DNA of 30,308 bases, from the UHGV virus genome UHGV-0218987. One strand, written 5' to 3'. The DNA comes from a virus. Shown piece by piece: positions 8,346 through 28,497 of this stretch (within the stretch, counting starts at the first letter, position 1; each line of letters begins with the position of its first letter). The position numbers were made by a program, and so were the translations under genes. Below the pieces are notes generated by a model that saw only the letters and a list, made by a program, of their open reading frames with translations, ran no database searches and was not told where the DNA came from.

Positions 8346-8357
8346 GTGACATGTCAC
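8346..8357. repeat. 12-bp perfect palindrome GTGACATGTCAC (copy 1 of 3)
   Basis: Exact palindrome immediately 3' of the 8359..8919 stop codon; identical copies at 26035-26046 and 28486-28497. Confidence 0.8.
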
Positions 8358-8358
8358 G

Positions 8359-8919
8359 CTACATTGATATATGATTCATAAAGTAGCTTAAAGATTTACT
8401 TCCCAGAAAAGAAATTTCTTTTCCTGGATATGTCGCAATAATTGAGCATGACTTATCCCCGTTAGAGGTAACAAATCCTGAATAACCTACTTGTTCTTTA
8501 CCATTTTGTTGCTTGGCTAAAAAGTAGAGGTAGCTTATCTTTTTGCCCTCTGGGTAAAACTCTGCCAAACCAGTATCGGTGATTGAATATTTTATTCTCC
8601 CGCCTTGAGTAACGTTTTCCATCTCAAGTTTAGCTATGTCTTTTCTGTTGTATTCAGCATTGATTTTCCTTTCGAAATCAATGTTGTTTTCAAATGAGTA
8701 GGAAGCAACAGTCTGAATAGATGGGAACACGTTTATCTGGATGCCTCCACAGTCGGCACAGGTATAAAGGTATGAATCAGATGGAATCCCCATAAAAGAA
8801 AACTGAGTTACCTTAAATTTATCGTTATCTCCAAAGTATTGAAGTTCGCATTTAACATTTTGCCCTGCAAAAGAAAATGCAGACATCAATATTGAAACAA
8901 AAAATATAATTGCCTTCAT
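8359..8919 (-). CDS. Secreted (signal-peptide) protein of unknown function; AT-rich cargo gene appended to the late operon
   Basis: Signal-peptide-like N-terminus MKAIIFFVSILMSAFSFA; start overlaps the stop of the 850-aa gene (TAATG); visibly AT-rich; followed by a terminator. Confidence 0.7.
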   Translation of the reverse strand: MKAIIFFVSILMSAFSFAGQNVKCELQYFGDNDKFKVTQFSFMGIPSDSYLYTCADCGGIQINVFPSIQTVASYSFENNIDFERKINAEYNRKDIAKLEMENVTQGGRIKYSITDTGLAEFYPEGKKISYLYFLAKQQNGKEQVGYSGFVTSNGDKSCSIIATYPGKEISFLGSKSLSYFMNHISM

Positions 8920-8921
8920 TA

Positions 8922-11474
8922 TTATTTACCTAGCATGAACTGCGATGGTGGGATCAGAAAGTCGTTACCCTGCTCACGCTCAACACGGCGCTGATAACGC
9001 TCAAGAGAGCCTGGGTCAAGGGCATCTTGTATCCGGTTCAATATTAAACCATTCATCGCCGTACGAAGCCAGAACACGTTGAGGAATGGCGTATTGTCAA
9101 GTGCCGTGCGATACCAGTCACCCAAATCTGCATCCCCTCTCGTGGTCTGCTGGAGCAGCGTGATAATGCTGTCAGCGTTCGATGCTGCTGGCCCCATTAG
9201 CGACGTAACCGGCCCGGCCCCCATGCGGTTGACCTCGCCAAACATGAAGTCACCCAAGATGCCAAGACCGCCCCCCTGAGATGCGGCTGCGAGAAACGTC
9301 TTGGCATCTGCCGGGCGTGGTGTTTGCCCTTTCAGCATGAGTTTTGACTGCATGGAGATATAACCAAACATAGTCGCCCAGACAAAGAGGTTTGCAGCAC
9401 CAAGGAAAGCCCCCTTCCCGTTACGTAGCAGCGCATTCGTCAGCGATCCGGTTTTCGACTCACCAAGCCCAGCAGGAATATAACCACGCCCGAATACTTC
9501 GCGTCCTAGTACGTTCTGCATGAAGCTTGCAGTGAACGATTTGTACTGACCAGCGAATCGTATTGCTTCCCCAGCCACCGTTCCTGGCACCGTGCCCATC
9601 TTCATAAACGCCTGCGTGCGATCGCCAGGCTCTGACATGGCGATATTCAGGCGGTCAAGGATGTAGCCGCGCAACTGCCCTTCCAATTGATCGCGTGCGT
9701 CAGCGATAGCGCGCTGCGTTGGTTTGATCCCCTTACTCTCTACATAACCGGCAATCACTTCGTCAGGCACGCCGCGGATGCCGCTGGTCGTCATGAACTT
9801 ACGACCTTCGCTATCGGCCATGTCCATGTTGCGAAAAATTTCCCACTCACGTTCGCCAATACCGTGCAGATCCAGCACGCGTCGCAGGTCTTCCGGTAGC
9901 CGCGCATGAGACTGGTCAGCATTCTTTGCAAGCCAGTTGGTTATCATCATGGCGTTGCTGTTGCGACCGCTCTCGGTCCAGAAGTTCATGAGGTTGTACT
10001 TAAAGAAAAGCTGCTGCGCGCGACCAAGCTTTCCATTCAGCGTGTCATCACCAGATATGCGCCGGATGATTTCCTGCGTCATGGAGTCGGAATAAACTCC
10101 GATAGAGGAAAGGATCTCTTTCTGCTCCGCGCTGTTGTAACGCGTGAAGCGGCCTCTCATAGCACCAAGCAACGCCTGCATAAAATTCTGCCCTTGGTAG
10201 CGCATCTCGGTAGCGGCGATAGGCACGTCGTTAAACGATGAGATTACCGCACCACCAAGTTGGCTCATACGCAACCAGCCGCGTACAGCCGCCGACGCAT
10301 TGGCCCAGCCTACGCTGCCAGGAATATTTAGCGAGCCGTCAACCTGCGGCATTACGGTACGGTTAATGCGACGCACCTTCGTCATGTAGTCAGCCAACGC
10401 TGCCGGTCTTCCGGATTTGCTGATATCTTCAGCAATGGCGTCCGTCAGGTACTTAAACATGTTCTGTGGGTTAGTGCCCAGTACGCGCATCATGCCCGTT
10501 GTGCGGGCAGCGCTGTTTAAGCCACCAAACAGCGCTTCTCGCAGGCTGCCGGTGCCGAATTGCTGGTTGTACTCGTGCCACGAGATACCATCTTTGAAGT
10601 GCAAAATTCGCTCTTGGCTGGCGCGTTTAGCTGCGTTCGCCGATCCCTTAAAGCCATTCATCCAATCGGGCTTTTCAGATGTAAGATGCACGCCGGAAGC
10701 CAGCCCGTTATAAATGTTACGCATGAACTGCTCGCGGTCAGCCACGCCGTCAAAAGTGCGCTCATCAAGGCGCGGGAGAATAGCATTTCGCCATGCTTCA
10801 TAACCTGCGGCGCGGATCTTCATGATGTCGTGTGACTGGCGAACTATATAGCCCGGCTCTTTGCGTATCCATGCCCCGGCGCGGTTCTCATCAATGCGCG
10901 CAGTTTCCTGCCATTTCATGATGATTTGTGCAGCGCTTACGGATTGCTTTGTCATACCGTCAGTTGACTGCCCGCGCCCTATGCGCCACATTGCATCGGC
11001 AATTTCCCGGTCATTGCTGCCGCTGGCGATGAATTGCACCAGTCCGGCACGGTCAAAATCGTAGTTGATACCGGAATGATACTTGCCGCGCAGTTGCGCC
11101 ACCTCCGAAGATACCGACCGGCGGGCGCCGGTACGCGCATCGTTGCGGCCAACCAGCATTGCTTCAAGCCCGATATCCGGGCGGTCTTTCCAGATAGTAC
11201 GAAGCTCTCTAAGTCGTTGTGCGGCAATACGGGCGTTGATTGCCTTATTGCGAGCCTCAATCTGTTTTGCCAGCATATCGGCATTGCTCAGTTCTTCCGC
11301 TGCGCGCATCGCGGCCTCTTCCAGAGACAGCGCCTCATTGGTCGCCAGAATTCGCCTAGTGGTGTCGTTCATGTCACGCACCAGCGACTCCATCTCATCG
11401 GAAGAAAGCTCGCGACCAGCGGCAGCATTTACACTGCGCTCGCACTGCGTCAAAAATTCGTTTGCTGCCATCAC
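8922..11474 (-). CDS. Large internal virion / DNA-ejection protein (850 aa)
   Basis: Long ORF in a run of three large, translationally coupled genes downstream of the tail tubular genes; assignment by position and size (podovirus internal-core analogue), not by a recognised motif. Confidence 0.55.
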   Translation of the reverse strand: MMAANEFLTQCERSVNAAAGRELSSDEMESLVRDMNDTTRRILATNEALSLEEAAMRAAEELSNADMLAKQIEARNKAINARIAAQRLRELRTIWKDRPDIGLEAMLVGRNDARTGARRSVSSEVAQLRGKYHSGINYDFDRAGLVQFIASGSNDREIADAMWRIGRGQSTDGMTKQSVSAAQIIMKWQETARIDENRAGAWIRKEPGYIVRQSHDIMKIRAAGYEAWRNAILPRLDERTFDGVADREQFMRNIYNGLASGVHLTSEKPDWMNGFKGSANAAKRASQERILHFKDGISWHEYNQQFGTGSLREALFGGLNSAARTTGMMRVLGTNPQNMFKYLTDAIAEDISKSGRPAALADYMTKVRRINRTVMPQVDGSLNIPGSVGWANASAAVRGWLRMSQLGGAVISSFNDVPIAATEMRYQGQNFMQALLGAMRGRFTRYNSAEQKEILSSIGVYSDSMTQEIIRRISGDDTLNGKLGRAQQLFFKYNLMNFWTESGRNSNAMMITNWLAKNADQSHARLPEDLRRVLDLHGIGEREWEIFRNMDMADSEGRKFMTTSGIRGVPDEVIAGYVESKGIKPTQRAIADARDQLEGQLRGYILDRLNIAMSEPGDRTQAFMKMGTVPGTVAGEAIRFAGQYKSFTASFMQNVLGREVFGRGYIPAGLGESKTGSLTNALLRNGKGAFLGAANLFVWATMFGYISMQSKLMLKGQTPRPADAKTFLAAASQGGGLGILGDFMFGEVNRMGAGPVTSLMGPAASNADSIITLLQQTTRGDADLGDWYRTALDNTPFLNVFWLRTAMNGLILNRIQDALDPGSLERYQRRVEREQGNDFLIPPSQFMLGK

Positions 11475-13168
11475 ATCCCCCGGTTAATCATACAGGCGGC
11501 AAATGCCCGGAAAGCGTTGCTCATGCTATTGTCGCTGGCGTCGGCACGAATATCATTGAGTTTCTGGCGCAACGTGGTCGCAAGATCAGGGTTATCGACA
11601 GCGATATCGTCAAGCAGGGCGTTACTCAGGTTGAGCTCGTTATCAAGGTCTGCAGCGGCAGCGGTAATTTCATGATCTGCCTTTTGCGTTTCTTGATAAA
11701 CCCGATCGGCTGTTTCGCTTGCTGGGCGAGCCGTTTCATCAACCTGCCGTGCCGGGTTCTGTATGCGATGGATGGCGCGTTCACGCAGTGCCGGTTTGTG
11801 CAGTTCATAGAAGGGCTCAACATCTGGGCTACGTCCTTCCATCATGTGTGCCAGCGCAGCGCGATACGCCTGCTGGTTCACGTTCCAGTCAGCATCCCTG
11901 ATGGCGCTTGCGGCAGTGCGAACTGCGCCAGCGACCGGCGACATCTGCATGCCGTCCAGGATCTGCTGCGCACGCTCGGAAATGGTGACTTTCAGATCGT
12001 CGGGGATATCGCCGCGGGAAATCTGAGACTGGCGCCAGCGCGCCTGCTCTGCTGTCGCGTTCTGCTCCAGCGATGTGTTGATCTCCTGATTGCGTGCAGC
12101 GATGGCGTCTTTCTCGGCCTGAATCTCTTTCAGTGCCCTAGAGCGCGCATCCTTAAACTTCATCCGCTGCCCCTGATACTTTTTGGTGCGCTGCTGCAGC
12201 GTCGCATCAAGCGAGTCAGCATGACGTTGATTAGCCGCAAGCTCGGCACGCAGGTCGGCAACGTTACCGATCTGCCCGCTCTGTAACTCCTGCTGGCGCG
12301 CCATATAGTCAGGAACCACGTCGTCATAAGCCCGGCTGTATGCGTAGCTCTCCGCTTCACTGGAAATGGCCGCCGCCAGATCTGCGTTAGCGCCAACCTC
12401 AGGGATATTCACGCCCGCCGGAATGTTGTCAGGCGTTATCACCGGGGTTGGCTGCGCATCGCCAGAAAACGCCGGGGACTCTCCCGTTGCAGCATCGGGA
12501 ACGCGACGCGGTCGCACGATATCGGCGATAAGGCCGCCGCCGGCATGCATTAGACCGCCAGCCATCGTGTTAAAGAAAGTACTTTCCAACGCGTTGCTAT
12601 AGGTGAAGTCGTCACCTTCCGCCGCCGCTGCCAGCCCGGTAAGCGGCACGGTCACCACCGCCTGCGCTGCCCCCATGCGTGCACCAGCAACAAATCGCTC
12701 GCCAAATCGGCCAAGCACAGAAGCCGCCTTTGCTTCTCCAGCGAACGGAACCAGCGCCAGCGCCACGTTACCAGGATCTGCCATTGAACCAGCTAGGCTG
12801 GCTGCGAAATTAAGCGGCGTGGCTACCCACCCGCTCGGTGCCGACATCGCGATCTGCTGGCGTGCCAGAGAATCTTTGCGTTCGGCAATAACATGATCGA
12901 GAAAAGCCTGCGTAACGCCAGAATCTGGCACGTTTATGCTCTTTACGCCGTACTGCTTCAGGAGCTCATCCGCTTCCTGCTTACTGATAACTGTAGAGTT
13001 TGGGTCATTCGCCAGCGAGTCGGCCTGCGCAAAGCGGTAGCCGGACATGACCGGCCCCTCTTCAAATCCCTGCTTAAGGGAAGAAAGCAGCGATTCGCCA
13101 AGCCCTGCTGGCGCGTTGCCAATTGGCTGGTTAATTCCCTGTCCCGGATCATCTGTGTAAATTGGCAT
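11471..13168 (-). CDS. Internal virion / DNA-ejection protein (565 aa)
   Basis: Coupled to flanking genes by 4-nt overlaps; Ala/Gly-rich with a coiled-coil C-terminal half; assignment by position. Confidence 0.55.
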   Translation of the reverse strand: MPIYTDDPGQGINQPIGNAPAGLGESLLSSLKQGFEEGPVMSGYRFAQADSLANDPNSTVISKQEADELLKQYGVKSINVPDSGVTQAFLDHVIAERKDSLARQQIAMSAPSGWVATPLNFAASLAGSMADPGNVALALVPFAGEAKAASVLGRFGERFVAGARMGAAQAVVTVPLTGLAAAAEGDDFTYSNALESTFFNTMAGGLMHAGGGLIADIVRPRRVPDAATGESPAFSGDAQPTPVITPDNIPAGVNIPEVGANADLAAAISSEAESYAYSRAYDDVVPDYMARQQELQSGQIGNVADLRAELAANQRHADSLDATLQQRTKKYQGQRMKFKDARSRALKEIQAEKDAIAARNQEINTSLEQNATAEQARWRQSQISRGDIPDDLKVTISERAQQILDGMQMSPVAGAVRTAASAIRDADWNVNQQAYRAALAHMMEGRSPDVEPFYELHKPALRERAIHRIQNPARQVDETARPASETADRVYQETQKADHEITAAAADLDNELNLSNALLDDIAVDNPDLATTLRQKLNDIRADASDNSMSNAFRAFAACMINRGM

Positions 13169-13169
13169 G

Positions 13170-15791
13170 TTATCGTCCTGATTGCTGGCCGTTCTGGAAA
13201 ATGTTAATCAGGTTGTCGCGCTGACTTTCTGCGCTGTATTCCTTAGACTGTCCGGGAGTATATTTCACCGGAGTATCAATGAACTTGGTAATGCTGTTCC
13301 ATACTGATCGGTTGGTTGTTCCCAGTTTCGCCAGATCGTTGAACGGCACCGTAATCGGGTTGCCGTCGGCACCGTTGACGATCAGCCCGTTGAGCATCAG
13401 GGTAAGTCCTGTTTCGTCGCTGTTGGTAACCCACTGCGCATTATCACGAATGCGGGAGATACTCTGCTCACGGTTGACCTCATCAGGTAGCCTTGGGTCA
13501 CCAATAAGCGGCATAATCTGATCTGCTGACAGGTTTTTCAGATACGCATTGGCACCATCGTTAACGTCACGAATATCTATCCCTGCACGCTTAGGTAGCC
13601 GCCAAGTGCCATTGGTCTGGTACTGCTCGCCGAGGATGTCCTGATACGCCTGTTTTGCTGCATCAGACGCCGACATTCCGCGCTGCATGTTGATGTAAGT
13701 AAGTCGTTTTCCCTGCTCGTTGAAGTTATTCCACACGGCAGTGCCACCAGGCTGAACAACCATCGTGCCAGCAAAATCTTTCGATTGGTCATTCCATGAC
13801 GAGTCGGCGCTATCCGCGTCGGTTTTCTCAAGACTGCCGCGTAAGTCAGCAGTTTTAACGCTACGGTTTTGCCAGAGCGCATTTGCCGCGCGCGGGTTCT
13901 CGGTAGCCATGACAACCTGCAACGCAGGATAAGCGCTCTTCTGAACCTGCTGCATCACCTGATCCGAGTATTTGCCGAACGACTGCGCCACCGACTGAAT
14001 GGCCTTTACGCTAGATTCCTGCGTGTTGTCAATACGCTGCAGTACATCATTGACCATGGACTCCGGTAAAACTTTTTTGCTCATTATCCCCAGGCGGTCT
14101 TTTTCAGACTGTATTCGGGAAACTAGGTATTCACCAGATGAAGGGTCATTCAGGTACTGCTGGAATGCAGCCTGCACAACCGGAGAGTTTTGTTGCAGCC
14201 ATGCCCCCGGATCCGCTTCCCGCGCCTTCAGTACCTGCCCAAGCTTGACCTTTGCCGATGCATAAAGCTCTGCTTTGTATTTAAAGTCAGGGTCGTTTTC
14301 CTGCGGTGCCATTGCCTGCACGGCGGCGGTACCCTGCTGGACGTTGCCCTGCATAATGGTCTGATAAACAGGTTGTAGCGTCATTGCCTGCTGGTATTGC
14401 TGGAAGGTTTTTTCCATCTGCAGGCGCTCGGCAGGCGCTGCCTGAAGCGGCATAACGGCGGCCCATTCGTGCGCTGAAATAGGCGTCACCTGCTTACCGG
14501 CCTCAATTTTGGATAGGTCGTCCTGCATTCGACTCTGTAGCGCAACGCGACCGGCTGAAGCCTGCATGTCGTACATGCCAGCAACCTTGCTCATCATCTG
14601 CGACTTTTTGTCCGGACTCATGGCGTTCCAGAATGGCTGTGCGATGAGGTTTTCCATCGTCGCAGATCCAGGAATAGCTCCAGCACTGCCAGTTACTTTT
14701 GCCACATAATTGCGCGTCTCGTCGTATGGGATAGCTGCGGCAAACTGGGCGTTACTGACTTCGCCTGTGCGCGGGTCGCCAATCTGTTTAATCCAGCCGT
14801 CAACCTTTCCTGGGCCAGCGTTATAGGCAGCTACTGCCAGAACCGGGTTATTGTCGTATTTCTTCATCTGCGCGCCGAAATAAGCTTGCCCCAAGCGGGC
14901 ATTATAGCGCGGGTCATTCAACCATTTATCGCGGTCCCACGGCACGCCAGCAAGGCGGGCAGCTTCGGGGCCAGTATCTTCCGTCACCTGCGCTACGCCA
15001 ACAGCGCCTTTTGGCGACACCAGAGGTGTTCCGTCCTTTCCGTACTGATTTCCGCCACTCTCCTGCCAGATTATTGCAGAGAATAACTGCGCCTCACTCG
15101 GTGTATCGGTTACCTCAATCTTGCCGTTCGGACCCATCATCTGTTGATACATCGGCACATACCACGCCTCCGCCGCACCGTTCGCGGCATTCTCGCGCCA
15201 CGAAACCCAGTTCTGTTCGATCTCTTCCTGACTCTGGCCGTGGGCTTCGCCGTAAGCGATGATGCTATGATATGCCTTCAATCCTGCCTGGTTTGCCATT
15301 GTCGGGTTACGGAACTGCATCGATAGGTTTTTTAGTGTCGCATCCTGCATATCCGCCTCATACTGGCGAACCTGTCCTATTTCGTACCTCCCGGCCTGCG
15401 TAGTGAACTGAATGCGCTGCTGCTGCGCCTGCTGCATGAAAGCATTACGAGCCTGTTCATCCGGCAGCGACATAGCCAGTTGCTCGACCTGGGCATCAAA
15501 CTGCTGCGTATACTCCTGACCTTTTCCAATAGCATTTTTCCCTTTCAGGTTAAGCAATCCTGTTTCAGGATTATTCAGCAGATCGCTGCTTATCTGACTG
15601 AGGTTAAGAGATGCCTCCTGAGCCAGAGCGATATTGGCACGCTGTTTTGCCTGCCCCAAAACATCAATTGCCTCTGTCCCTGCCCGAACAAAAGCATCAC
15701 CAATACCTTGCTGAGAAAACGTCTGCAAGCCTGCTGACTGAACTCCACGACTCTCAACCTGACGTCCGGATACTGTTGGTACGACTGGCAT
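13170..15791 (-). CDS. Internal virion protein with lytic transglycosylase (SLT/GH23) domain
   Basis: SLT motifs IIWQESGGNQYG … GVAQV … AAYNAGPGKV. Start taken at ATG 15791 (MPVVPTVSG…, TAATG overlap with the upstream stop) rather than the listed 15866. Confidence 0.75.
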   Translation of the reverse strand: MPVVPTVSGRQVESRGVQSAGLQTFSQQGIGDAFVRAGTEAIDVLGQAKQRANIALAQEASLNLSQISSDLLNNPETGLLNLKGKNAIGKGQEYTQQFDAQVEQLAMSLPDEQARNAFMQQAQQQRIQFTTQAGRYEIGQVRQYEADMQDATLKNLSMQFRNPTMANQAGLKAYHSIIAYGEAHGQSQEEIEQNWVSWRENAANGAAEAWYVPMYQQMMGPNGKIEVTDTPSEAQLFSAIIWQESGGNQYGKDGTPLVSPKGAVGVAQVTEDTGPEAARLAGVPWDRDKWLNDPRYNARLGQAYFGAQMKKYDNNPVLAVAAYNAGPGKVDGWIKQIGDPRTGEVSNAQFAAAIPYDETRNYVAKVTGSAGAIPGSATMENLIAQPFWNAMSPDKKSQMMSKVAGMYDMQASAGRVALQSRMQDDLSKIEAGKQVTPISAHEWAAVMPLQAAPAERLQMEKTFQQYQQAMTLQPVYQTIMQGNVQQGTAAVQAMAPQENDPDFKYKAELYASAKVKLGQVLKAREADPGAWLQQNSPVVQAAFQQYLNDPSSGEYLVSRIQSEKDRLGIMSKKVLPESMVNDVLQRIDNTQESSVKAIQSVAQSFGKYSDQVMQQVQKSAYPALQVVMATENPRAANALWQNRSVKTADLRGSLEKTDADSADSSWNDQSKDFAGTMVVQPGGTAVWNNFNEQGKRLTYINMQRGMSASDAAKQAYQDILGEQYQTNGTWRLPKRAGIDIRDVNDGANAYLKNLSADQIMPLIGDPRLPDEVNREQSISRIRDNAQWVTNSDETGLTLMLNGLIVNGADGNPITVPFNDLAKLGTTNRSVWNSITKFIDTPVKYTPGQSKEYSAESQRDNLINIFQNGQQSGR

Positions 15792-16336
15792 TATAATCCT
15801 CCGGGTAATCTGGTTCCTGCTGCTGCCCCGATTGGCGCAGGAGTGCTTTGAGTAAACGGACTCCACGTCCCACCAAACATCTGGTACGCACCGTATGCCT
15901 TCAGAGGCGCAGTGAGCAATGTTGTTGCTGCTCCCACATTCCCCTGTTTACGGGCTGAACTGGCTTCTGCTTTATAGTTGGCAGCCTGAACCTGATAACC
16001 GTAAGCCTCGCGTTGCGCGTTATTCACCGTCGTCAGCGAATCAAGAGCGCCAAACTGGGCAGTGTCGCCAAATATATCCAGCGCGTTACCTGTAGATAAA
16101 TCAGAGCCGGTAGCCCCCATTGTCGCCGCCTGTGTACCAAGCCGCTGTCGGGTCTCTCTGCGCCGTTGCTCAGCTTCAGCGTTACCCCTGTTTATTGCAT
16201 CATTTGCCTGAGCTGTGGCTATATCTGCGTTCGCTTCTGCAACCTTCGAGGCATACTTTCCCTGTTGGTACTGGGTGTATGCCTGAATGCCACTCATGGC
16301 GAGCATTGCGCCACCAGCAATAACCGGATCGCACAT
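15791..16336 (-). CDS. Small internal virion protein (T7 gp14-like by position)
   Basis: 181-aa Ala/Gln-rich protein between the tail tubular genes and the large ejection proteins; tightly coupled to its neighbours. Confidence 0.5.
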   Translation of the reverse strand: MCDPVIAGGAMLAMSGIQAYTQYQQGKYASKVAEANADIATAQANDAINRGNAEAEQRRRETRQRLGTQAATMGATGSDLSTGNALDIFGDTAQFGALDSLTTVNNAQREAYGYQVQAANYKAEASSARKQGNVGAATTLLTAPLKAYGAYQMFGGTWSPFTQSTPAPIGAAAGTRLPGGL

Positions 16337-20193: not shown

Positions 20194-20204
20194 ATACACT
20201 CCTG

Positions 20205-20232
20205 CAATAAAGGGGCCGAAGCCCCTTGTCTG
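20205..20232 (-). terminator. Hairpin / weak terminator downstream of 20244..20588
   Basis: Stem AGGGGC-CGAA-GCCCCT; weak T-tract (TATTGC) on the minus strand, so it may be an attenuator or RNA stability element. Confidence 0.4.
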
Positions 20233-20243
20233 ATTCGCGAGGC

Positions 20244-20588: not shown

Positions 20589-20589
20589 C

Positions 20590-21027: not shown

Positions 21028-21078
21028 CTTCTTTCTCCATTAGTGGGTCTGTTACGACCCACAGGTTAATAACAGGCG

Positions 21079-22071: not shown

Positions 22072-22079
22072 TTCCTCTC

Positions 22080-22781
22080 TTATTTGCCATAGAGCACTTC
22101 GGCCGCACTACGCTGGCCTTCATTACCACCGGTGACCATGCCATCTTCAGACATCGCCTTTCCGATTTTCACGAACGTTTTGACCAGATCAGGGTGATTA
22201 CCCAGCCCGGTGGTGTTCAGATATTCTTTGAGTTCAGGTGTCCCGAACTGGTCAAGCGCACGCTGTGCGGCGCTAAGGTTAGAAATCAACTTGTCGCCAC
22301 CGATTTCTTTATCAGCTTTTACATCCGCAGCCCACTGCTCGGTTGTTTTCTGCCAGGCTTCTGCCTGGCGCTGCTGAACACCTGCCAGAATCTTCGGATA
22401 AGCATCAACCAGCTTTTGCGCTTGCTCGTTGGTCAGGTTTAGTTCTCGCGCCACCGGCTCGAATTCCTTCAACGCTTCTGTATCCAGCTCTACGCCTTCG
22501 GCAGCCTGAAACTCGTACTTCTCCGGCGCACCATCCGGTTTATCGCCGTCCTTTTTTTCACCCTGCTTATCGCTTTCAGGCTTTTTGTCATCAGCAGGTT
22601 TATCGCCATCAGCAACAGGTTGCGGCTTATCACCTTCTTGTTGTGATGGATCACCAACTGGAGCATGGTTATCACCTGCAGGCGCTGATGGTTCTGACGC
22701 AGCCGGAGCTGCTCCACCATCGACTGGTTGCTCATTGCAAAGACGGCGATACAGCAAACGCTCAAATAAATTCATGATCAC
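22080..22781 (-). CDS. Scaffolding protein
   Basis: Low-complexity acidic/lysine/proline-rich N-terminal half and helical C-terminal half, located between portal and capsid genes. Confidence 0.55.
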   Translation of the reverse strand: MIMNLFERLLYRRLCNEQPVDGGAAPAASEPSAPAGDNHAPVGDPSQQEGDKPQPVADGDKPADDKKPESDKQGEKKDGDKPDGAPEKYEFQAAEGVELDTEALKEFEPVARELNLTNEQAQKLVDAYPKILAGVQQRQAEAWQKTTEQWAADVKADKEIGGDKLISNLSAAQRALDQFGTPELKEYLNTTGLGNHPDLVKTFVKIGKAMSEDGMVTGGNEGQRSAAEVLYGK

Positions 22782-23074
22782 TCCTGTTCACTGGCCTCTT
22801 TGGCCATCTTCAAATACTGTTCAGGGCAATGCGCCATAACGCGCTGAAACAGCTCCAGCGCCAGATTGCGTTGCCCCTCATTAAATGCCATTGCCATAGC
22901 ATCCATCGGAGAGATAGCGGAAAACACCCGGCCTTTCTCCAGCACAGACCAGACAACGCGACGCCCCTGTTCACTGCTCATGACAAAGCGAATGTCATCA
23001 ATTTCACGCTGTGCCATGTCACGTTGCTTACGGGCGTTTTCTTCTTTCAGTTGATCGTCTTCGTAATCTGTCAT
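22778..23074 (-). CDS. Hypothetical small head-module protein
   Basis: 98-aa ORF overlapping the portal stop and the scaffold start (4-nt overlaps). Confidence 0.45.
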   Translation of the reverse strand: MTDYEDDQLKEENARKQRDMAQREIDDIRFVMSSEQGRRVVWSVLEKGRVFSAISPMDAMAMAFNEGQRNLALELFQRVMAHCPEQYLKMAKEASEQE

Positions 23075-24750
23075 TGTGATTGCCCACCCTGACCACTAAC
23101 TGCATTCGCCATAGCTGACAAAACACTCGGATCCGAAGTTTTAGCTTCGCTTAGCGTCTTGGCACCCTGTGCCGCCGCCATCCCCATCGCCATCATTTGT
23201 TGCTGCTGTTGTTGCTGTGCCCGTTGCTGGCGAGCCTGCTCAACCTGTTCCTGCGGAACAATGACGGTTGGAGACACTCCAGACATATCAGCGAATGCAT
23301 CGATCGCCTGATCAACGTTGAGTTTGTCGAGAGCTTCTGGTTTCGCTTGCGCAAGTTGACCAATGAAGTTAACCGTGGACGCCAGACTGGACAGGCCGAT
23401 AGACTTCTGCGCCTGAGCCATGACGGAAATGTATTCGACCTTCAGGGGCATGCCTTCCATCGCGTCAGGCGGTGGCGGCAACATGTTTTTACGCACCATC
23501 ATCGAGAAAGCGCGGTCAATGAGAGGATTAAGACATTCGTCGTTCAGACGCTCCAGAACCGGCCCCAACATCAGAAGTTTTTCTTCTTTCATTTCGATCA
23601 CCGCTTCAACAGGCATCGAGCGGGTATTGATGTTCTGCAACATCATGAACAGATCGACAAAGTAGGCGCTGTTAATGATTTGACGAGTGTCCTGAATGTC
23701 TGCCACCAAATCTGCTGTACTGGGGTTAACCAGATAAGCAGGCCTGAAGCCATCCTGACCAGTAATCTGATCGATATACGTGATGTCGCCAGGAAGAAGG
23801 GAGGCGCGCTGATTCTTGAGGGAAGTCGGAGCAACCATCGGAGGATTGGTGGCTTTATCAATCAACTGCGACTTGCGCTTCTGGAGAAGCTGCAATGCCT
23901 TAACAGGTCCAAGCGCCAGCATACCCGGGCATGATGATCCATAAACATCTTCGCCGTTAACTTCCCAGCGCGGAGCCATAATTGGAAACTCATCGAATCC
24001 GGACTCACGCAACAACTTGTCGTTATCGCCACCAACCTCGTAATAAACCGATTTGAATGGCTTGTTCTTGCTATCCAGCTTCGATGTATCGCGGTCAATG
24101 TTCGGATAAACCGAATGCATCACTTCAATCCACTTCTCGTAGGTGCCGCTTTCCCACATGCTTTTTACGGATTCGCTGACGTTATTTAGTCCGAATTCCT
24201 GAACAAGCTGACGAACAGTCATAGAGAACTTGCGAAAACAGGTGTCCACACTGCCACGAGGTGAGTTAGCCAGGTAGTAACTTCCTATCGGGAATGGCAT
24301 TGTACGAATGATGTCCTCGTCATCCTCCAGCACCGCCATTGCACCGGTGCTGTATGTGCCGAGGCTTCCGTATAACTGCGGCAGCGACTGATAGAGATTC
24401 GACTTATTGAACATATCGTTCATGCGGTTCTGCACTGCCTCAAGCCACAACTTAACAGGGCCATAATCCATCATTTCAGGATCTGGCGTAGCCAGGCGAA
24501 ACCACGGACGCACGGGGCTTGTGATGCCTGACATCATGCCGCTGGCGAGAGTGCGCGCCGCCATAGTCCCAGTCGAATCAATAATGCGTGTATTGCGTCG
24601 ATCGTTACGGTTGACCTCAGAAGTCAGAAAGCGGGAACCACGCGGGTTGATGTAATCACTCAACTCGCGCCAGTGCGGCTCGAACGACTGACGCTCGCTT
24701 TCAAGTTGTGCGAACTGTTTGTTCAATCGCTCTTTAGTTGTTTCCGCCAT
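23071..24750 (-). CDS. Portal (head-to-tail connector) protein
   Basis: 559-aa ORF upstream of the scaffold and capsid genes with GGAG RBS; size and position consistent with a podovirus portal; acidic Gln-rich C-terminus. Confidence 0.7.
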   Translation of the reverse strand: MAETTKERLNKQFAQLESERQSFEPHWRELSDYINPRGSRFLTSEVNRNDRRNTRIIDSTGTMAARTLASGMMSGITSPVRPWFRLATPDPEMMDYGPVKLWLEAVQNRMNDMFNKSNLYQSLPQLYGSLGTYSTGAMAVLEDDEDIIRTMPFPIGSYYLANSPRGSVDTCFRKFSMTVRQLVQEFGLNNVSESVKSMWESGTYEKWIEVMHSVYPNIDRDTSKLDSKNKPFKSVYYEVGGDNDKLLRESGFDEFPIMAPRWEVNGEDVYGSSCPGMLALGPVKALQLLQKRKSQLIDKATNPPMVAPTSLKNQRASLLPGDITYIDQITGQDGFRPAYLVNPSTADLVADIQDTRQIINSAYFVDLFMMLQNINTRSMPVEAVIEMKEEKLLMLGPVLERLNDECLNPLIDRAFSMMVRKNMLPPPPDAMEGMPLKVEYISVMAQAQKSIGLSSLASTVNFIGQLAQAKPEALDKLNVDQAIDAFADMSGVSPTVIVPQEQVEQARQQRAQQQQQQQMMAMGMAAAQGAKTLSEAKTSDPSVLSAMANAVSGQGGQSQ

Positions 24751-24764
24751 TTCAATGACTCCGG

Positions 24765-24971
24765 TTACTGGCCAAGCAGCGTTTTACCGCTGGTATTAGC
24801 GGTTGATGTGTCGCCCTGAGAACCGGTAAGCAGCGTAGAACTACGACCAGCAGCAGCGCGACGGCGACGAGTTTCTTCGTCGCGGGCATCAACAACGGCG
24901 GCATCCTGCTCCTGTGGTGCTGCCTGAACTTCTGGTGTTGCAGGCACTGACGGTGAGCTACCCATGCACAT
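24765..24971 (-). CDS. Small low-complexity hypothetical protein upstream of portal
   Basis: 68-aa ORF with GGAG RBS ending 14 nt before the portal RBS; the alternative overlapping frame (24752..24991) was judged less likely. Confidence 0.35.
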   Translation of the reverse strand: MCMGSSPSVPATPEVQAAPQEQDAAVVDARDEETRRRRAAAGRSSTLLTGSQGDTSTANTSGKTLLGQ

Positions 24972-24998
24972 ATCAATGACTCCGTACGCAATTAAATT

Positions 24999-25022
24999 AT
25001 TACCAATTTAACCACATATGAT
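24999..25022 (+). promoter_or_regulatory. Copy (iii) of conserved regulatory cassette (ATTACCAATTTAACCACATATGAT)
   Basis: Homologous to 5987-6010 and 3111-3137; followed by a TTGACA hexamer at 25040-25045 and the inverted repeat at 25061-25077. Confidence 0.45.
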
Positions 25023-25039
25023 TTATTTATCGTAGATAG

Positions 25040-25077
25040 TTGACATTTAACGCATGAATTATTACCTTTAAGGTAAG
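25040..25077 (+). promoter_or_regulatory. Promoter-like region (TTGACA) with inverted repeat ATTACCT-TTA-AGGTAA
   Basis: Consensus -35 hexamer; the operator-like inverted repeat sits where the -10 would be; lies upstream of the tRNA and Gp49-like module. Confidence 0.45.
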
Positions 25078-25398
25078 CAAAGAGTTCATTCCGGTTACTA
25101 ACCTGACTGGCTTGTCGTTAAATTGAACAGGTGGAGTGAGCTTTTATTTTGAGCAGTACGGCGTATGGCACATGCGCCGATAGCGGTCTGGATACGTTTA
25201 AGGGGCACCCTCCCTTGCTCGGGCAAACGAACCAGCTAGCCGGAATGTGCAAGTCGAGCGGTTTTATTCCGCGCACGGGGATTCACCATCCCGGCGATTC
25301 GGTGTGACGCCTCGGAAGAGACGAGGGTACAACGATGAGAGCATTTATGGAGCCGCGACAAAGTGTGGCGCCTTAACAGGCTAAGTGCTCTCAGCGTT

Positions 25399-25475
25399 GT
25401 GGCATTAGCTCAGTTGGACAGAGCAACCGCCTTCTAAGCGGTTGGTCGCAGGTTCGAATCCTGCATGCCGCGCCA
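25399..25475 (+). tRNA. tRNA-Arg (anticodon UCU), argU-like, phage-borne
   Basis: Cloverleaf folded by hand: acceptor stem GTGGCAT / ATGCCGC (one G-U pair), D-arm GCTC…GAGC, anticodon stem ACCGC / GCGGT with loop CTTCTAA (anticodon TCT), T-arm GCAGG-TTCGAAT-CCTGC, discriminator G, encoded CCA. Confidence 0.85.
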
Positions 25476-25518
25476 GAATCACGCCTAAGGACCGTGATGC
25501 CAGAAGTTCCAGGGGCTT

Positions 25519-25561
25519 GGCGGTGATGGTTTCCCTTGAAGGACTATCACCGCCCTTTTTA
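25519..25561 (+). terminator. Rho-independent terminator downstream of the tRNA
   Basis: 9-bp stem GGCGGTGAT / ATCACCGCC followed by CTTTTT. Confidence 0.55.
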
Positions 25562-25673
25562 CAGCAGGACGCCATTGCGATGACTTCATGCTGTAAACCC
25601 GTACAGCCACGGAAGGCATAACTCATTGCTTCCAGTTCGCCCGGTTCGCCGGGCATTTTTTTAAGGTGAGATT

Positions 25674-26030
25674 ATGAGCGACCAGCAAATCGAAAAAGAA
25701 ATCGTTGAGAAAGGCAAAACCGCTCCGCGAGTTACGCCTCAATATATCGAAAGCATCATTCTTGAAGAGCATTTCTTTACTGCTTATGACGGCATTCGTG
25801 CTGCCAATATGGGCGTTGGCGATTCATGGACAGCGCATAAATCTACAGACCTCCTGACTTTCTGCGTATTGGTACTGAAGAATGGCTTCACCGTCACCGG
25901 AGAGAGTGCCTGTGCAAGTCCGGAAAACTTTGATGCGGAAATTGGTCGGAAGATTGCCCGGCAGAATGCTGTAAACAAAATCTGGATGCTCGAAGGTTAC
26001 TTGCTGAAGCAGAAGTTAAGCGAGCAATAA
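25674..26030 (+). CDS. Gp49-like phage protein (N4 gp49 / Sf6 gp66 family), function unknown
   Basis: 118-aa ORF with AGGTGAG RBS; motif block TFCVLVLKNGFTVTGESACASPENFDAEIGRKIA…KIWMLEGYLL matches my recollection of this family. Confidence 0.6.
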   Translation: MSDQQIEKEIVEKGKTAPRVTPQYIESIILEEHFFTAYDGIRAANMGVGDSWTAHKSTDLLTFCVLVLKNGFTVTGESACASPENFDAEIGRKIARQNAVNKIWMLEGYLLKQKLSEQ

Positions 26031-26034
26031 CACC

Positions 26035-26046
26035 GTGACATGTCAC
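26035..26046. repeat. 12-bp perfect palindrome GTGACATGTCAC (copy 2 of 3)
   Basis: 4 nt after the Gp49-like stop codon and about 75 nt from the 3' end of the large terminase gene. Confidence 0.8.
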
Positions 26047-26050
26047 AAAC

Positions 26051-26078
26051 AGCCAGCCTATGAGCTGGCTTTGTTTTA
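26051..26078 (+). terminator. Rho-independent terminator after the Gp49-like gene
   Basis: Stem AGCCAGC-CTATGA-GCTGGCT followed by TTGTTTTA. Confidence 0.65.
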
Positions 26079-26120
26079 TCCTCACCAGAGGATATCAACG
26101 ACATTATCCCCACCAGCGGA

Positions 26121-27596
26121 TTAAGCATAGGGATCGTAATCTGTGATGGCCTTGCCTTGCTGGTTCTGCTGACCGGGAATTCGCAGACGCTTCGACACAG
26201 GGAACGCAAACGTCAGCAGTAGCGCATCGCCTTTACCAGGAGAACGCCCAAGTCGCTCTTTGATATCTTCCTTCGGTTCGATAACGATTTTACCGTCCAC
26301 TCGAACTTTGTACTCTGCTGCCGACAGGTCGTCCGCTGTTTCCTGGTCATCAAGCATGCCGCCCAGCCTCAGCCATGTCTTGCATGAGTTGAACATCTCC
26401 CCACGCTTGTTGAGCATCTGCGGGTCAGTAGACGCGCCACCGAACGGAACAAGTTGCCATGTACGACCCCAGCCGTCACCGATTGACTTCAGACCAGTTC
26501 CGTAACCGAAGTCGATGAACACTGCGTCAGCCTGGTACTGGTCTTCAAAGTCAGCGATACGCTTCGCCATAATCAGATCGTCAGTGGTCTTGTTGCCGGT
26601 CCACAGCACCTTACTATGCAGCCCCTGCCGCAGGTATATCACAGCGTCATCAACACCGGAGTATGCCGGGTCAACGCCGATTATCACCGGAGCATGTGCC
26701 ACCTGCGCAGCGGTTATCACCCGTTTCATTGCCTCGTCAGTAAGTCCGGTAGGGATAAACTGCAATTCAGATGCATCAGGGAATATTCCGCGCACACGGA
26801 TTTTAACGAAGTCACTGTCTTCCCCGTAGTCATCAACCCATTTCTGCAACTGCTGTTTGTTGGTGCCTTCCACCGTCCGGCTGTCAATCTGCGCAGTTTT
26901 CCAGCGGTGTTTATACTTGCGGAAACATTCACGGAATCGCCCGGTATTACGCGTCGGGTTTCCGAACGCCACCCAAATAATCTCAGTGTCTTCGTCCGTA
27001 AGCGCACCCTCGGCAACTTCCCACACCAGATCCGCAATGTTCGACGCTTCATCGAATACCACGATGATGCGTTTGCGCTCGTTGTGTAGTCCTGCGAATG
27101 CCTCAGTGTTGTGCTCAGACCAGGGGATTGCGTCAGCTCGCCACCGCTTGTCGTGTCCAGGATCATTGCTGTACATCGCGGTAGCGGTGCAGGTGAACCA
27201 GTCTTTCGTGATAGCAAGGTTCGACCACTTGATAATTTCAGGCCAGGTCTTCGTTCGTAGCTGGTTGTCGGTGTTGGCGGTCACCACGACCTTACAATCC
27301 TCGCAAGTGGACATGCCCCAGTTGATCAGCATTGAGATGAATGCGGATTTACCAATACCGTGACCCGAAGCACGTGCCAGCATAAGCGGCTGATAGCGCG
27401 TCTCTGGATTCTGCAGGTGATCACGTATCTCTCGGAACGCATCAGCCTGCCACTGACGTGGACCTGTGGCATGTGCTAATTCAGTCCCCTCTTCCCCCCA
27501 CGGGAACGCATAGAGGGCATAGCCAAGCGGATCGTGAGTGAACCCTGCAATATCCTCGATCAACTGCTCTTCAGGAGATAACGCTGTATCTGTCAC
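26121..27596 (-). CDS. Terminase large subunit
   Basis: Walker A-like P-loop GHGIGKS near the N-terminus of a 491-aa ORF; start overlaps the stop of the upstream small-terminase-like gene. Confidence 0.8.
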   Translation of the reverse strand: MTDTALSPEEQLIEDIAGFTHDPLGYALYAFPWGEEGTELAHATGPRQWQADAFREIRDHLQNPETRYQPLMLARASGHGIGKSAFISMLINWGMSTCEDCKVVVTANTDNQLRTKTWPEIIKWSNLAITKDWFTCTATAMYSNDPGHDKRWRADAIPWSEHNTEAFAGLHNERKRIIVVFDEASNIADLVWEVAEGALTDEDTEIIWVAFGNPTRNTGRFRECFRKYKHRWKTAQIDSRTVEGTNKQQLQKWVDDYGEDSDFVKIRVRGIFPDASELQFIPTGLTDEAMKRVITAAQVAHAPVIIGVDPAYSGVDDAVIYLRQGLHSKVLWTGNKTTDDLIMAKRIADFEDQYQADAVFIDFGYGTGLKSIGDGWGRTWQLVPFGGASTDPQMLNKRGEMFNSCKTWLRLGGMLDDQETADDLSAAEYKVRVDGKIVIEPKEDIKERLGRSPGKGDALLLTFAFPVSKRLRIPGQQNQQGKAITDYDPYA

Positions 27597-28192
27597 TGAT
27601 TACCATCCTGACGTTCTTTGAGTCGCTTCCTGGCTGCCGCTATGCGATCAGCAATTGTCACATTCACATTAACATCCAGGCGTTCTTTGAATGCGTTGAC
27701 GTCGACGTGCTTACCAATCAGTTCGAGGTTCTTCACCTTGTCAGGCCATTTAATTTTTTTGAGGATTGTCTCTATCGAATCCTCGTTCATGTTCATGATG
27801 GTCGATGACAGATCAAAGCCACTAAGCGTAGTGCGCCAGATTTTCGGCCACTCACGGATTGGTTTAAGGCTCCCATCGTCGTTGAGGATATCGATCACGT
27901 CCATCTGGTCGATCTCCACTAGGCGCATGAGAACGTAATCAGCACTGACGCGCATTCGTTTGTTGCGCTCCTCCATCAACTCGGCAATCCGTTTTTGAAT
28001 GCGTTCATCGCGCATCATGACACAGGCTTTAACTGCCGCTGTATTTGGGGAGAATCCTGCGTTAATCGCTGCCTGAGTCTGGTTTTCAGGCGTTTTGATG
28101 TATGACTGGCAATAAGCCTCCTGCATTGCTGTTAGTGGCTTAAATTGCGTTGATTTGCGTTTATAGGTTTTAGGTTCAGCAGGCATCATAAC
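27593..28192 (-). CDS. Terminase small subunit (putative)
   Basis: Gene immediately upstream of and overlapping the large terminase; start taken at ATGATG 28192 (MMPAEPK…, GGTGG RBS) rather than the listed 28267. Confidence 0.55.
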   Translation of the reverse strand, partial: VMMPAEPKTYKRKSTQFKPLTAMQEAYCQSYIKTPENQTQAAINAGFSPNTAAVKACVMMRDERIQKRIAELMEERNKRMRVSADYVLMRLVEIDQMDVIDILNDDGSLKPIREWPKIWRTTLSGFDLSSTIMNMNEDSIETILKKIKWPDKVKNLELIGKHVDVNAFKERLDVNVNVTIADRIAAARKRLKERQDGNQ

Positions 28193-28263
28193 CACCGTGG
28201 TAATAGTTACCGTTGTGGTAATAGTACCATGCAAAATAAAGCCGCCATAGTTGGCGGCAGTAT

Positions 28264-28476
28264 TCAAAGTCCATCAAATTCATCGTAAAAACTCTCGTCA
28301 AGATACCCTTCCCATTTACCGCGAATGAAAATTACATCCTCGCCGCAAGGGTGCTGACTGTCGATAACTATATCCCTCCTGGCGCAACCATACTTATGCA
28401 TGAGAAATTTAACCTCTTTCGGAAAATTTGCTGAGTTATCTCTCATATCTTCAAGGTCGTAGCGTATTTTTGGCAT
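28264..28476 (-). CDS. Hypothetical small protein
   Basis: ORF with AAGGTG RBS before the ATG at 28476 (the listed start at 28497 is a GTG inside the palindrome). Confidence 0.4.
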   Translation of the reverse strand: MPKIRYDLEDMRDNSANFPKEVKFLMHKYGCARRDIVIDSQHPCGEDVIFIRGKWEGYLDESFYDEFDGL

Positions 28477-28485
28477 AACACCTTC

Positions 28486-28497
28486 GTGACATGTCAC
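28486..28497. repeat. 12-bp perfect palindrome GTGACATGTCAC (copy 3 of 3)
   Basis: Spans the stop codon of 28494..28832 and the region just upstream of the 28476 start; about 300 bp upstream of the small terminase gene. Confidence 0.8.

Follow-up and report, generated by a model that had tools for sequence, protein, structure and literature searches.

In cluster A mycobacteriophages, the stoperators (the sites of L5 gp71) are asymmetric, orientation-dependent sequences that occur in about 20-30 copies and are bound by the immunity repressor in lysogens, the bound phage protein being thought to halt elongating RNA polymerase. The operators of ribbon-helix-helix (RHH) repressors, among them P22 Arc and Mnt, CopG and the TA antitoxins TacA, MazE and ParD, overlap the promoter of the operon that encodes the repressor. 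The matS site of MatP, which on the host chromosome is clustered within the Ter macrodomain, follows the 13-bp consensus GTGAC[AG]N[TC]GTCAC (PMC3603311, PMC3116907), the canonical form of which is reported as avoided by prophages (PMC3603311). Four flanking base pairs are common to this site and to the site of SlmA, a TetR-family protein that binds the 12-bp palindrome GTGAGTACTCAC (PMC3116907).

The window, by which we mean the whole stretch of 30,308 nucleotides analyzed here (virus genome UHGV-0218987), corresponds to an epsilon15/phiV10-like (Uetakevirus) E. coli prophage and contains exactly three exact copies of the 12-bp perfect palindrome GTGACATGTCAC, at 8346-8357, 26035-26046 and 28486-28497 (copies 1, 2 and 3, hereafter sites C, B and A). 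A sequence-only reading had placed this number far above chance, which was confirmed by the lack of any exact copy in all 100 dinucleotide-preserving shuffles of the window; its positions, 1-4 nt past the stop codons at copies 1 and 2 and across a stop codon at copy 3, were likewise correct. The hexamer AACACC, said to precede two of the copies, directly adjoins copy 2 and is separated from copy 3 by a 3-nt gap (aacaccTTC). The only one-mismatch copy in the window, GTGCCATGTCAC (23011-23022), is located within an ORF, the epsilon15 gp5-like gene, and this variant is common to relatives. The complete motif is a 14-bp palindrome, Y-GTGAC-NN-GTCAC-R, with the outer bases t..g, c..a and c..a on the three window copies.

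Site A (cGTGACATGTCACa, 28485-28498) forms part of the 3' end of the minus-strand gene of a 112-aa phrog_536 protein (28494-28832; ORF 28494-28835), a homologue of epsilon15 gp49, phiV10 p55 and N15 gp46, so that the TGA stop of this gene (28494-28496) lies inside the site. The ATG of a 70-aa minus-strand ORF (phrog_1541, 28264-28476) begins 9 nt downstream, and this ORF is followed by a terminator-like hairpin (GCCGCCAACTATGGCGGC, then TTTATTTT; 28241-28258, minus strand) that ends the early-right operon. About one quarter of close relatives have this small ORF, phiV10-type genomes carrying a short remnant instead, and the same hairpin follows site A in epsilon15, phiV10, SPN1S and Tyrion; the true start of terS is probably located just downstream of the hairpin. 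Sites A and B bracket the minus-strand terminase genes (26121-28267) terS (27593-28267, PF03592) and terL (26121-27596), as had been recognized, and the bracket additionally holds the 70-aa ORF. Site B (cGTGACATGTCACa, 26034-26047) is located between terL and a convergent plus-strand gene of the Sf6-gp66/N4-gp49 family (Phage_gp49_66, PF13876; 25674-26030), which belongs to a swappable cassette: its 12-mer lies 4 nt past the TAA of this gene, 74 nt beyond the terL stop and 4 nt ahead of a plus-strand terminator-like hairpin (AGCCAGCCTATGAGCTGGCT, then TTGTTTT; 26051-26070) that stands between the site and the terL stop. Site C (tGTGACATGTCACg, 8345-8358) is found between convergent genes at the 3' end of the long late (virion) operon, where its 12-mer lies 1 nt past the TAG (8359-8361) of the last gene (phrog_11983, 186 aa; 8359-8919, minus strand), which is variable among relatives, and where the site directly adjoins the minus-strand terminator-like hairpin at the operon end (AGGCCGCTTTCGCGGCCT, then TGTTTTT; 8328-8345). 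The hairpins adjoining copies 1 and 2 are genuinely terminator-like. Sites B and C occupy the sole non-coding gaps at the ends of the terminase unit and of the long virion operon.

The identical 12-mer is present at the three orthologous junctions in epsilon15, phiV10, SPN1S, Tyrion, Kp4865-1, BUCT554 and BUCT711, Klebsiella and Enterobacter relatives included, and within 1.43 Mb of close relatives it occurs at cognate positions only. The layout of site A, in which the motif starts 1 nt before the TGA of the gene, is common to epsilon15, SPN1S, Tyrion, N15 and many prophages; site B is kept in phiV10 (2262), epsilon15 (2142), SPN1S (2174), Kp4865-1 and BUCT554, and site C in phiV10 (19493), epsilon15 (19517), SPN1S, Tyrion, BUCT554 and BUCT711. 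The DNA flanking these 12-mers diverges or is swapped among relatives, and at site C a 60-bp island (8300-8360) is kept in relatives whose flanks differ. A near-identical complete prophage beside guaA in E. coli CP8-3_Sichuan has exactly the same three copies, with none in the prophage early region and none in 9.7 kb of host flank. The 12-mer is absent from the approximately 72 kb of E. coli chromosome sampled, of which 50 kb from the Ter region contain four 13-bp matS sites. The two doubts raised at the outset, that the palindrome might be a common host repeat or might lack conservation at equivalent positions in related phages, were thus not borne out by these comparisons.

On the basis of sequence comparison and structure modeling, the palindrome is most likely the docking site of a small prophage-encoded protein whose gene lies beside one copy, and this pairing with the phrog_536 protein is deduced from co-occurrence, co-variation and fold. 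Unrelated phages with a phrog_536 homologue (N15-like, P2-like, ZF40 and a Vibrio phage) contain 1-4 copies of GTGAC-N2-GTCAC: ZF40 has three, one of them 2 nt after the stop of the homologue, N15 has three, one of them spanning the TGA of gene 46, Vibrio phage K303 has three and a Yersinia P2-like phage has one. At least one copy lies within 10 kb of the homologue in 77 of 80 IMG/VR loci, the other three encoding the protein without any site in this range, and one copy or more is found in 32 of 33 prophage loci that come from different Enterobacterales species; these 33 loci hold 50 sites in 612 kb compared with 0.58 expected, an approximately 86-fold enrichment, although part of the co-occurrence comes about automatically, one site being physically contained in the 3' end of the gene. 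In the reverse direction, of 80 viral stretches that a search with the motif brought up, at least 48 either carry the gene of the protein or are of Uetakevirus-like type. In each genome GTGAC ranks first or nearly first as a half-site among all 5-mer inverted repeats of the same form, the spacer is 2 bp throughout more than 200 contexts with a single 3-bp exception in Vibrio K303, and 97% of 414 half-sites have a pyrimidine at position -1, with Y and R flanks that vary independently and not as base pairs. Moreover, the central dinucleotide varies with the protein subtype, a co-variation that spans only three or four independent lineages: N15-type proteins (β-strand TTRRDWVL) go with CA/TG and Uetakevirus-type proteins (RKLEIVL) with AT, while GC is found at the stop-codon site in Yersinia-species prophage loci and AC/GC in the Vibrio phage. 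The family ranges over phages of Enterobacterales, Vibrio and Aeromonas only, and a literature search returned no description of the motif or of the protein.

The model of the phrog_536 protein predicts an RHH core preceded by a basic, Arg-rich N-terminal helix and followed by a C-terminal Cys4-type cluster, and TraM, NikA and PcfF, accessory proteins of relaxosomes, are among its fold matches. Two properties of an RHH operator are seen here, namely a cognate protein modeled with this fold and a site that co-occurs and co-varies with it. The binding site of a dimeric regulator, one of several roles put forward by the sequence-only reading, is the one that gained support, since the motif is symmetric at the DNA level and follows the predicted phage RHH protein in presence, position and central bases.

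With respect to genes, the sites are over-represented in non-coding DNA and at distances of up to 20 nt from stop codons (30-54% compared with about 5% of random positions) as well as beside terminators (28% of 208 contexts compared with about 2%), although the latter may reflect that the gap between stop and terminator is the sole free DNA. Several sites are located within operons, after a stop codon and ahead of the next ribosome-binding site and start codon. A consistent relation to promoters was not found: a properly spaced -10 hexamer follows GTGACA in 6% of cases compared with 4.3% at random, and a promoter-like TTGACT-N17-TACTGT located 6 nt after site A is specific to Klebsiella/Enterobacter-type relatives. 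The classical repressor arrangement, with the site over the regulated promoter, does not apply given this lack of a general promoter association. In contrast to the operators of RHH repressors, the invariant site here lies at the 3' end of the gene, over its stop codon, and at operon ends, and the protein differs from such repressors and from TA antitoxins by its extra N-terminal Arg-rich helix, its C-terminal Cys cluster and the lack of a conserved toxin partner. The site is also conserved across phages with different annotated repressor operators (ATTACC-N5-GGTAAT in epsilon15). It resembles stoperators in that several identical short sites are scattered over a phage genome, in the short gaps between genes inside operons or where operons end, but it is not of the mycobacteriophage type: it is a perfect palindrome in 1-4 copies, three in this genome, and the protein presumed to bind it is a delayed-early lytic product and not the repressor. 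Nor is the palindrome an intrinsic terminator, as it folds at only -1.2 kcal/mol and lacks a T-run.

The comparison with MatP and matS bears on an alternative to which we attach some, if limited, probability: The sites would be a few dispersed architectural landmarks that the phage RHH protein or host MatP occupies and that serve not to control transcription but to bridge or compact phage DNA, to tether it in the cell, or to exclude or unload host MukBEF-type SMC complexes. The inverted half-sites GTGAC/GTCAC are identical to those of matS (PMC3603311, PMC3116907), the phage site amounting to matS minus one spacer base, and the proposed reader would, like MatP, be a small dimeric RHH protein. 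The sites are likewise few (1-4 per genome), dispersed, often outside promoters, to which their relation is inconsistent, and sometimes intragenic; the conserved copies in N15 repA, in the internal virion protein gene of Klebsiella phages and in ZF40 gp08 and gp12 are no less compatible with an architectural role than with a transcriptional one. Enterobacterales, Vibrio and Aeromonas, to whose phages the family is confined, are the lineages that possess MatP, and the joining of one site to the gene of the protein is reminiscent of parS and parB. However, the palindrome does not match the matS consensus: in the window copies, as in more than 200 related contexts, the spacer measures 2 bp and not 3 bp (a 12-bp compared with a 13-bp core), and the Y..R flanks are absent from the four sampled matS sites. 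Furthermore, the sites do not cluster in Ter but reside on phages, phage-plasmids and, in the near-identical relative, a guaA-adjacent prophage. Sequence homology to MatP was not detected (hhalign probability 0.2%), the best 150 of 241 family clusters contain no MatP-sized relatives, and the modeled protein has a Cys cluster but neither a four-helix bundle nor a C-terminal coiled coil of the kind MatP uses for partner contacts. The co-variation of the central bases with the phage protein disfavors host MatP as the reader. These bases switch with the subtype of the protein even in phages that share hosts, which also speaks against recognition by a host transcription factor or a nucleoid protein (MatP, SlmA, CRP or similar) independently of the phage protein, the least probable of the readings considered. 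The outer GTGA..TCAC is indeed common to the SlmA site and matS (PMC3116907), but the inner four bases of the SlmA palindrome are GTAC and not CATG, and nothing ties SlmA to these phages. The 12-mer is missing from the sampled E. coli DNA that holds four matS sites. The outer bases also resemble CRP half-sites, but the spacing is wrong for CRP/FNR-type sites, in which 6 bp separate TGTGA from TCACA, as the sequence reads GTGA-N4-TCAC.

That the palindrome together with a terminator forms a short linker for cassette exchange, and is conserved for that role, we regard as unlikely. The boundary itself, which had been proposed earlier, is borne out: in relatives with at least 99% identical terL, at least six unrelated sequences begin 0-8 nt beyond copy 2, homology breakpoints meet the palindrome edge at all three sites A, B and C, GGYGTTA (a TAA stop plus 4 nt) stands beside the palindrome in several unrelated cassettes, and RecET-type recombinases are encoded by these phages. 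The further claim that the palindrome promotes exchange does not follow from this. Against it, 12 bp are very short to drive homologous exchange, conservation of the motif extends to copies inside genes and to genomes without mosaic flanks, the Y/R preference and the protein-linked central-base switches indicate protein recognition, and junctions at the edge are expected at any strongly selected element without recombinogenic activity. Still less probable is a packaging signal, with all sites or site A alone aiding terminase recognition as pac or as the site of an accessory factor that would resemble relaxosome RHH proteins. Besides the bracketing of terS and terL and the fold matches to TraM, NikA and PcfF, this suggestion can draw on Vibrio K303, where a copy precedes the terS ATG by 19 nt, and on a P2-like prophage copy between accessory genes and portal gene Q, which, from the P2 map, we take to be where P2-type cos sits. 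However, the positional link to terminase seen in Uetakevirus and Vibrio K303 is not general, as neither in the cos phage N15 nor in ZF40 does any copy lie close to terminase or cos; headful packaging does not need three dispersed identical sites, and site C is 18-20 kb away from the terminase genes. The boundary of the phiV10 record falls inside the palindrome, but this is also where the last annotated gene has its stop codon, so that the boundary looks arbitrary. We consider it very improbable that GUGACAUGUCAC acts in RNA, as a small hairpin in 3' UTRs or intercistronic regions that affects termination, the stability of the mRNA or the translation of the gene that follows: All window copies are transcribed, two adjoin terminator hairpins, copy 3 precedes a start codon by 9 nt and minimum free energy folds draw a 4-bp hairpin beside terminators, but the isolated hairpin is no better than those of shuffled sequences and is absent from the fold of copy 3 in its context. 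With a 5+5 stem the loop would be 2 nt, which is impossible, the Y..R flanks show no co-variation as a base pair, and the associated protein has a predicted DNA-binding fold. Nothing was found in support of a nuclease or methyltransferase target. Overall, the original interpretation is partly supported.

To the explanation as a whole, in which a dimeric phrog_536 protein recognizes the 14-bp site and acts on transcription at boundary sites, we assign a probability of roughly 55%. A dimer of the small phage protein (28494-28832, minus strand) would recognize Y-GTGAC-NN-GTCAC-R, the gp49-like protein binding duplex DNA with YGTGACATGTCACR. The protein would be made from the early-right operon in lytic growth and would then occupy the three boundary sites, where it could act as a local, orientation-independent roadblock or insulator that strengthens operon ends; such a roadblock would also limit read-through from the operon of the protein itself into terS. 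In lineages with a promoter directly after site A, the protein may regulate that promoter instead. We thus infer a role of the site at transcription-unit boundaries, where it may function as a roadblock, an insulator or a local regulator.

The 30.3-kb window contains precisely three copies of the 12-mer GTGACATGTCAC (at 8346, 26035 and 28486), and none of 100 dinucleotide-preserving shuffles of the window contained any copy, which confirms the sequence-only reading that three exact copies lie beyond chance. The count of one-mismatch variants proposed there yields a single addition within the window, GTGCCATGTCAC at 23011 in a coding region. The window is an epsilon15/phiV10-like (Uetakevirus) E. 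coli prophage with its late genes on the minus strand, and all three exact copies mark transcription-unit ends: Copy 1 (site C, 8346) lies 1 nt past the TAG of the ORF at 8359-8919 (-) and abuts a terminator hairpin at 8345-8328 (-). Copy 2 (site B, 26035) lies 4 nt past the TAA of the ORF at 25674-26030 (+); a terminator hairpin (26051-26070) begins 4 nt on and is followed by the stop of the convergent terL at 26121. Copy 3 (site A, 28486) includes the TGA stop of the ORF at 28494-28835 (-), and 9 nt separate the end of the palindrome from the ATG of a 70-aa ORF (28264-28476, -), beyond which lie a terminator (28258-28241) and terS.

Several features of the surroundings deserve mention in their own right. 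The one-mismatch copy (23011-23022; late strand GTGACATGGCAC; position 5306 in phiV10) lies within an epsilon15 gp5-like gene, is kept in many relatives and may be a weak extra site or merely coding sequence. The annotated terS start (a TTG, window 28230-28267 (-); position 41 in phiV10, stretch 41-80) is located upstream of a strong terminator hairpin, and translation probably begins at the ATG immediately past this hairpin (…ttttgcATG). Between terL and the portal operon, a variable cassette carries a tRNA-Arg (anticodon TCT, 25399-25475, +), annotated alike in relatives. In the accessory region, which runs convergent to the late operon, an ORF at 7687-8259 (+), with a terminator at 8258-8276, gives a weak YafO-toxin Pfam match (E 9e-6); its TL-2011b homologue is annotated as a YafO-family toxin and sits beside a Bro-N antirepressor-like gene.

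The expectation that related phages keep the motif at equivalent positions was borne out in epsilon15, phiV10, SPN1S and Tyrion, where it occupies three orthologous junctions: site A covers the stop codon of the gp49/p55 homologue and lies upstream of terS (39612 in epsilon15, the record junction in phiV10), site B separates terL from a convergent small gene (2142 and 2262, respectively), and site C closes the long virion operon next to the operon's terminator (19517 and 19493). The Klebsiella/Enterobacter phages keep most sites, not all: BUCT554 has sites A, B and C, Kp4865-1 has A and B without a copy at the site C position, and BUCT711 has A and C without B; an extra copy in an internal virion protein gene is common to the latter two. 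Single-base variants are rare (GTGACATGTTAC in phiV10, GTGACCTGTCAC in BUCT554), and the DNA around the conserved sites is only ~80% identical, or unrelated. The exact motif is restricted to the cognate positions throughout 1.43 Mb from 80 close relatives. A near-identical complete prophage beside guaA carries exactly the same three copies; its early and integrase regions and 9.7 kb of flanking host DNA contain none. Of 5,426 complete E. coli genomes, 500 carry at least 80% of the terminase-region segment, which includes the gene of the gp49/p55 homologue. The motif is a real, strongly selected cis element, unmarked in the annotations of epsilon15 and phiV10. The annotated repressor operators of epsilon15 were considered as the same element and rejected, as they follow a different motif, ATTACC-N5-GGTAAT.

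The ORF whose stop lies inside copy 3 is a member of phrog_536, which PHROGs and NCBI annotate only as 'transcriptional regulator'; Pfam and NCBIfam scans of its 112-aa product gave no match. By tblastn, homologues were found in quite different phages (epsilon15-like, N15-like, P2-like and ZF40-like phages and one Vibrio phage), and the four that were fetched all have the same kind of site, against a chance expectation of ~0.04 copies per genome: Pectobacterium myovirus ZF40 carries three GTGACATGTCAC, one of them 2 nt after the homologue's stop; N15 carries GTGACCAGTCAC once and GTGACTGGTCAC twice, with one site spanning the gene 46 TGA; Vibrio phage K303 carries GTGACGCGTCAC once and GTGACACGTCAC twice; and a Yersinia P2-like phage has one copy. 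Among the 1,024 possible 5-mer-N2-inverted repeats, GTGAC was the top or a near-top half-site in every genome tested, and the spacer in those genomes was 2 bp, apart from a single 3-bp case in Vibrio K303. The association extends to larger samples: at least one site lies within 10 kb of the homologue in 77 of 80 IMG/VR loci, and among 33 prophage loci drawn from different Enterobacterales species, 32 contain at least one (50 sites in 612 kb versus 0.58 expected). A site that starts 1 nt before the homologue's TGA is very frequent in the sampled loci. Conversely, retrieval with TGTGACATGTCACG returned 80 viral stretches, 23 of which encode the protein within the stretch and ~25 more of which are Uetakevirus-like. 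We take the motif to be, most probably, the operator of an RHH-zinc protein of phages that had not been characterised before; the pairing of protein and site is well supported (probability of about 0.75), and the biological effect is putative. Searches of the literature, made with the 12-mer, variants of it and the protein, turned up no description of either motif or protein.

A conserved downstream partner gene was not found, N15 gp47 and the 70-aa ORF of the window being unrelated. Reported expression of a 'gp46' in a telomere-phage lysogen was rejected as bearing on this family: the gp46 of that paper is a cB-like repressor of another family. The N15 genome also contains CGACC-N2-GGTCG four times, probably the dispersed SopB centromere sites and a second dispersed-palindrome system there. 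In a Providencia alcalifaciens prophage (L195, 10355-10398), two perfect GTGACATGTCAC lie 32 bp apart centre to centre, just past the homologue's stop and upstream of a TATAAT; this pair resembles a classical tandem operator and differs from the layout of the window copies.

At the DNA level, the half-site is preceded by a pyrimidine in 97% of cases (207 dereplicated contexts), and the element is therefore a 14-bp palindrome, Y-GTGAC-NN-GTCAC-R (proposed cognate site in duplex form, tGTGACATGTCACg). The flank pairs C..A (88), C..G (63) and T..A (43) occur near the product of the single frequencies; the two flanks are independent and not maintained as a base pair. As RNA, the 12-mer reaches only -1.2 kcal/mol, and the hairpin is absent in the copy-3 context. 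The central dinucleotide is CA/TG with N15-type proteins (beta-strand TTRRDWVL), AT with Uetakevirus-type proteins (RKLEIVL), GC in Yersinia-species prophage loci at the site over the gene's stop, and AC/GC in the Vibrio phage. Such co-variation of centre and protein subtype, drawn from few independent lineages only, is as expected under direct recognition and argues against a conserved host reader.

The half-sites are identical to those of matS, the host Ter signal GTGAC[AG]N[TC]GTCAC (PMC3603311, PMC3116907), while the phage spacer is one base shorter. The Ter region of E. coli MG1655 (1,500,001-1,550,000) contains four canonical 13-bp matS and no 12-mer in 50 kb, and these four lack the Y..R flank preference seen at the phage sites; phage loci contain 12-mers and essentially no 13-mers. 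MatP likewise reads DNA via an RHH (PMC12756933). Homology of the phage protein to MatP was rejected, as hhalign finds none, and its fold match to MatP is no better than to other RHH proteins. A PDB sequence-profile search with the protein gave weak chance-level matches only, including TraR at E 0.43, and a search of 1.84 billion representatives returned only a small family of ~110-aa proteins (best 150 of 241 clusters). Because the spacer differs, hhalign is negative and the fold match is unspecific, the site is distinct from matS, and kinship of the protein with MatP is not demonstrable; the matS likeness together with the shared host range reflects either convergence or a very old relationship.

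Across the sampled loci, sites are enriched in non-coding DNA, and a minority of conserved copies lie within genes. Between 30 and 54% fall within 20 nt of a stop codon (~5% at random), and a terminator hairpin adjoins the site, usually 0-5 nt away, in 59 of 208 contexts (versus ~2%). Within operons the order stop-site-ribosome-binding site-start recurs at copy 3 of the window, at N15 genes 46/47 and upstream of terS in K303; some lineages have paired sites ~32-37 bp apart, and Klebsiella/Enterobacter-type relatives have a good promoter-like element 6 nt after site A. Since the three window copies mark transcription-unit ends, a roadblock or insulator at operon boundaries is the best reading: The bound protein would act independently of orientation, and binding at the stop codon of the regulator gene itself could add negative feedback and gate read-through towards terS. 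An architectural role may fit equally well, the gap between stop and terminator perhaps being the only free DNA, and the matS resemblance plus the shared host range count for it. The temperate phages and phage-plasmids concerned, from MatP-bearing bacteria, would then own a matS-like system, an RHH-zinc protein with a few 'matS minus one base' sites. Such a system would serve to organise the phage chromosome, to bridge or insulate it, or to shield it from host MatP and the MukBEF/SMC machinery, with which it might instead compete; the spacer, 1 bp shorter, would hide the sites from host MatP, a possible reason for the avoidance of canonical matS by prophages. We regard such a system as unlikely.

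The sites do not, in general, form part of promoters. As a general role, a -35 element (GTGACA resembling TTGACA) was rejected, a suitably spaced -10 being no commoner than random in 416 views. Individually, copy 1 (8346-8375, +) scores as a sigma-70-like promoter, GTGACA-N18-TATGAT (10/12 matches), antisense into the last late gene, and site A of epsilon15, SPN1S and Tyrion reads GTGACA-N17-TAAATT with a terminator directly after, an arrangement that recalls lambda PR'-tR' and is not general.

The sites also coincide with mosaic junctions. Beyond site B, relatives with at least 99% identical terL continue into one of at least six unrelated sequences, which start at a distance of 0-8 nt; two alternatives exist beyond site A, one of terminator type and the other of small-ORF type; and site C is a conserved 60-bp island of terminator and palindrome between unrelated flanks. 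The earlier description of the copies as module boundaries is correct; the palindrome may itself cause exchange, or it may simply form the outermost selected position of a conserved arm. Phages of the phiV10 type have ATGCATGATGAATTTGATGGGTTTTGA (MHDEFDGF*; phiV10 1-80) after site A in place of the 70-aa ORF, and because this peptide matches the C-terminus of that ORF (…YDEFDGL*), these genomes look like deletion derivatives with the junction at the palindrome. The AACACC said to precede two copies is exact at copy 2 and 3 nt off at copy 3; it is part of a heptamer, GGYGTTA (TAA stop + CRCC), found directly beside the palindrome in several unrelated site B cassettes of the close relatives (window 26028-26034) and 3 nt from site A in the window (28477-28482).

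What is unusual in this system is the site within the regulator's stop codon, the operon-end placement and the matS-like half-sites; otherwise it is of a known kind, in which a DNA-binding protein of a phage has cognate sites dispersed over the genome. A family known only as 'transcriptional regulator' thereby gains a concrete DNA target that can be tested, and the three operon boundaries of Uetakeviruses gain a conserved cis element that is unmarked in published annotations. Should the protein be a boundary roadblock, it would extend the 'stoperator' principle beyond mycobacteriophages in a second, symmetric version; should the resemblance to matS be functional, phage genomes would be connected with the Ter-organising and SMC systems of their hosts.
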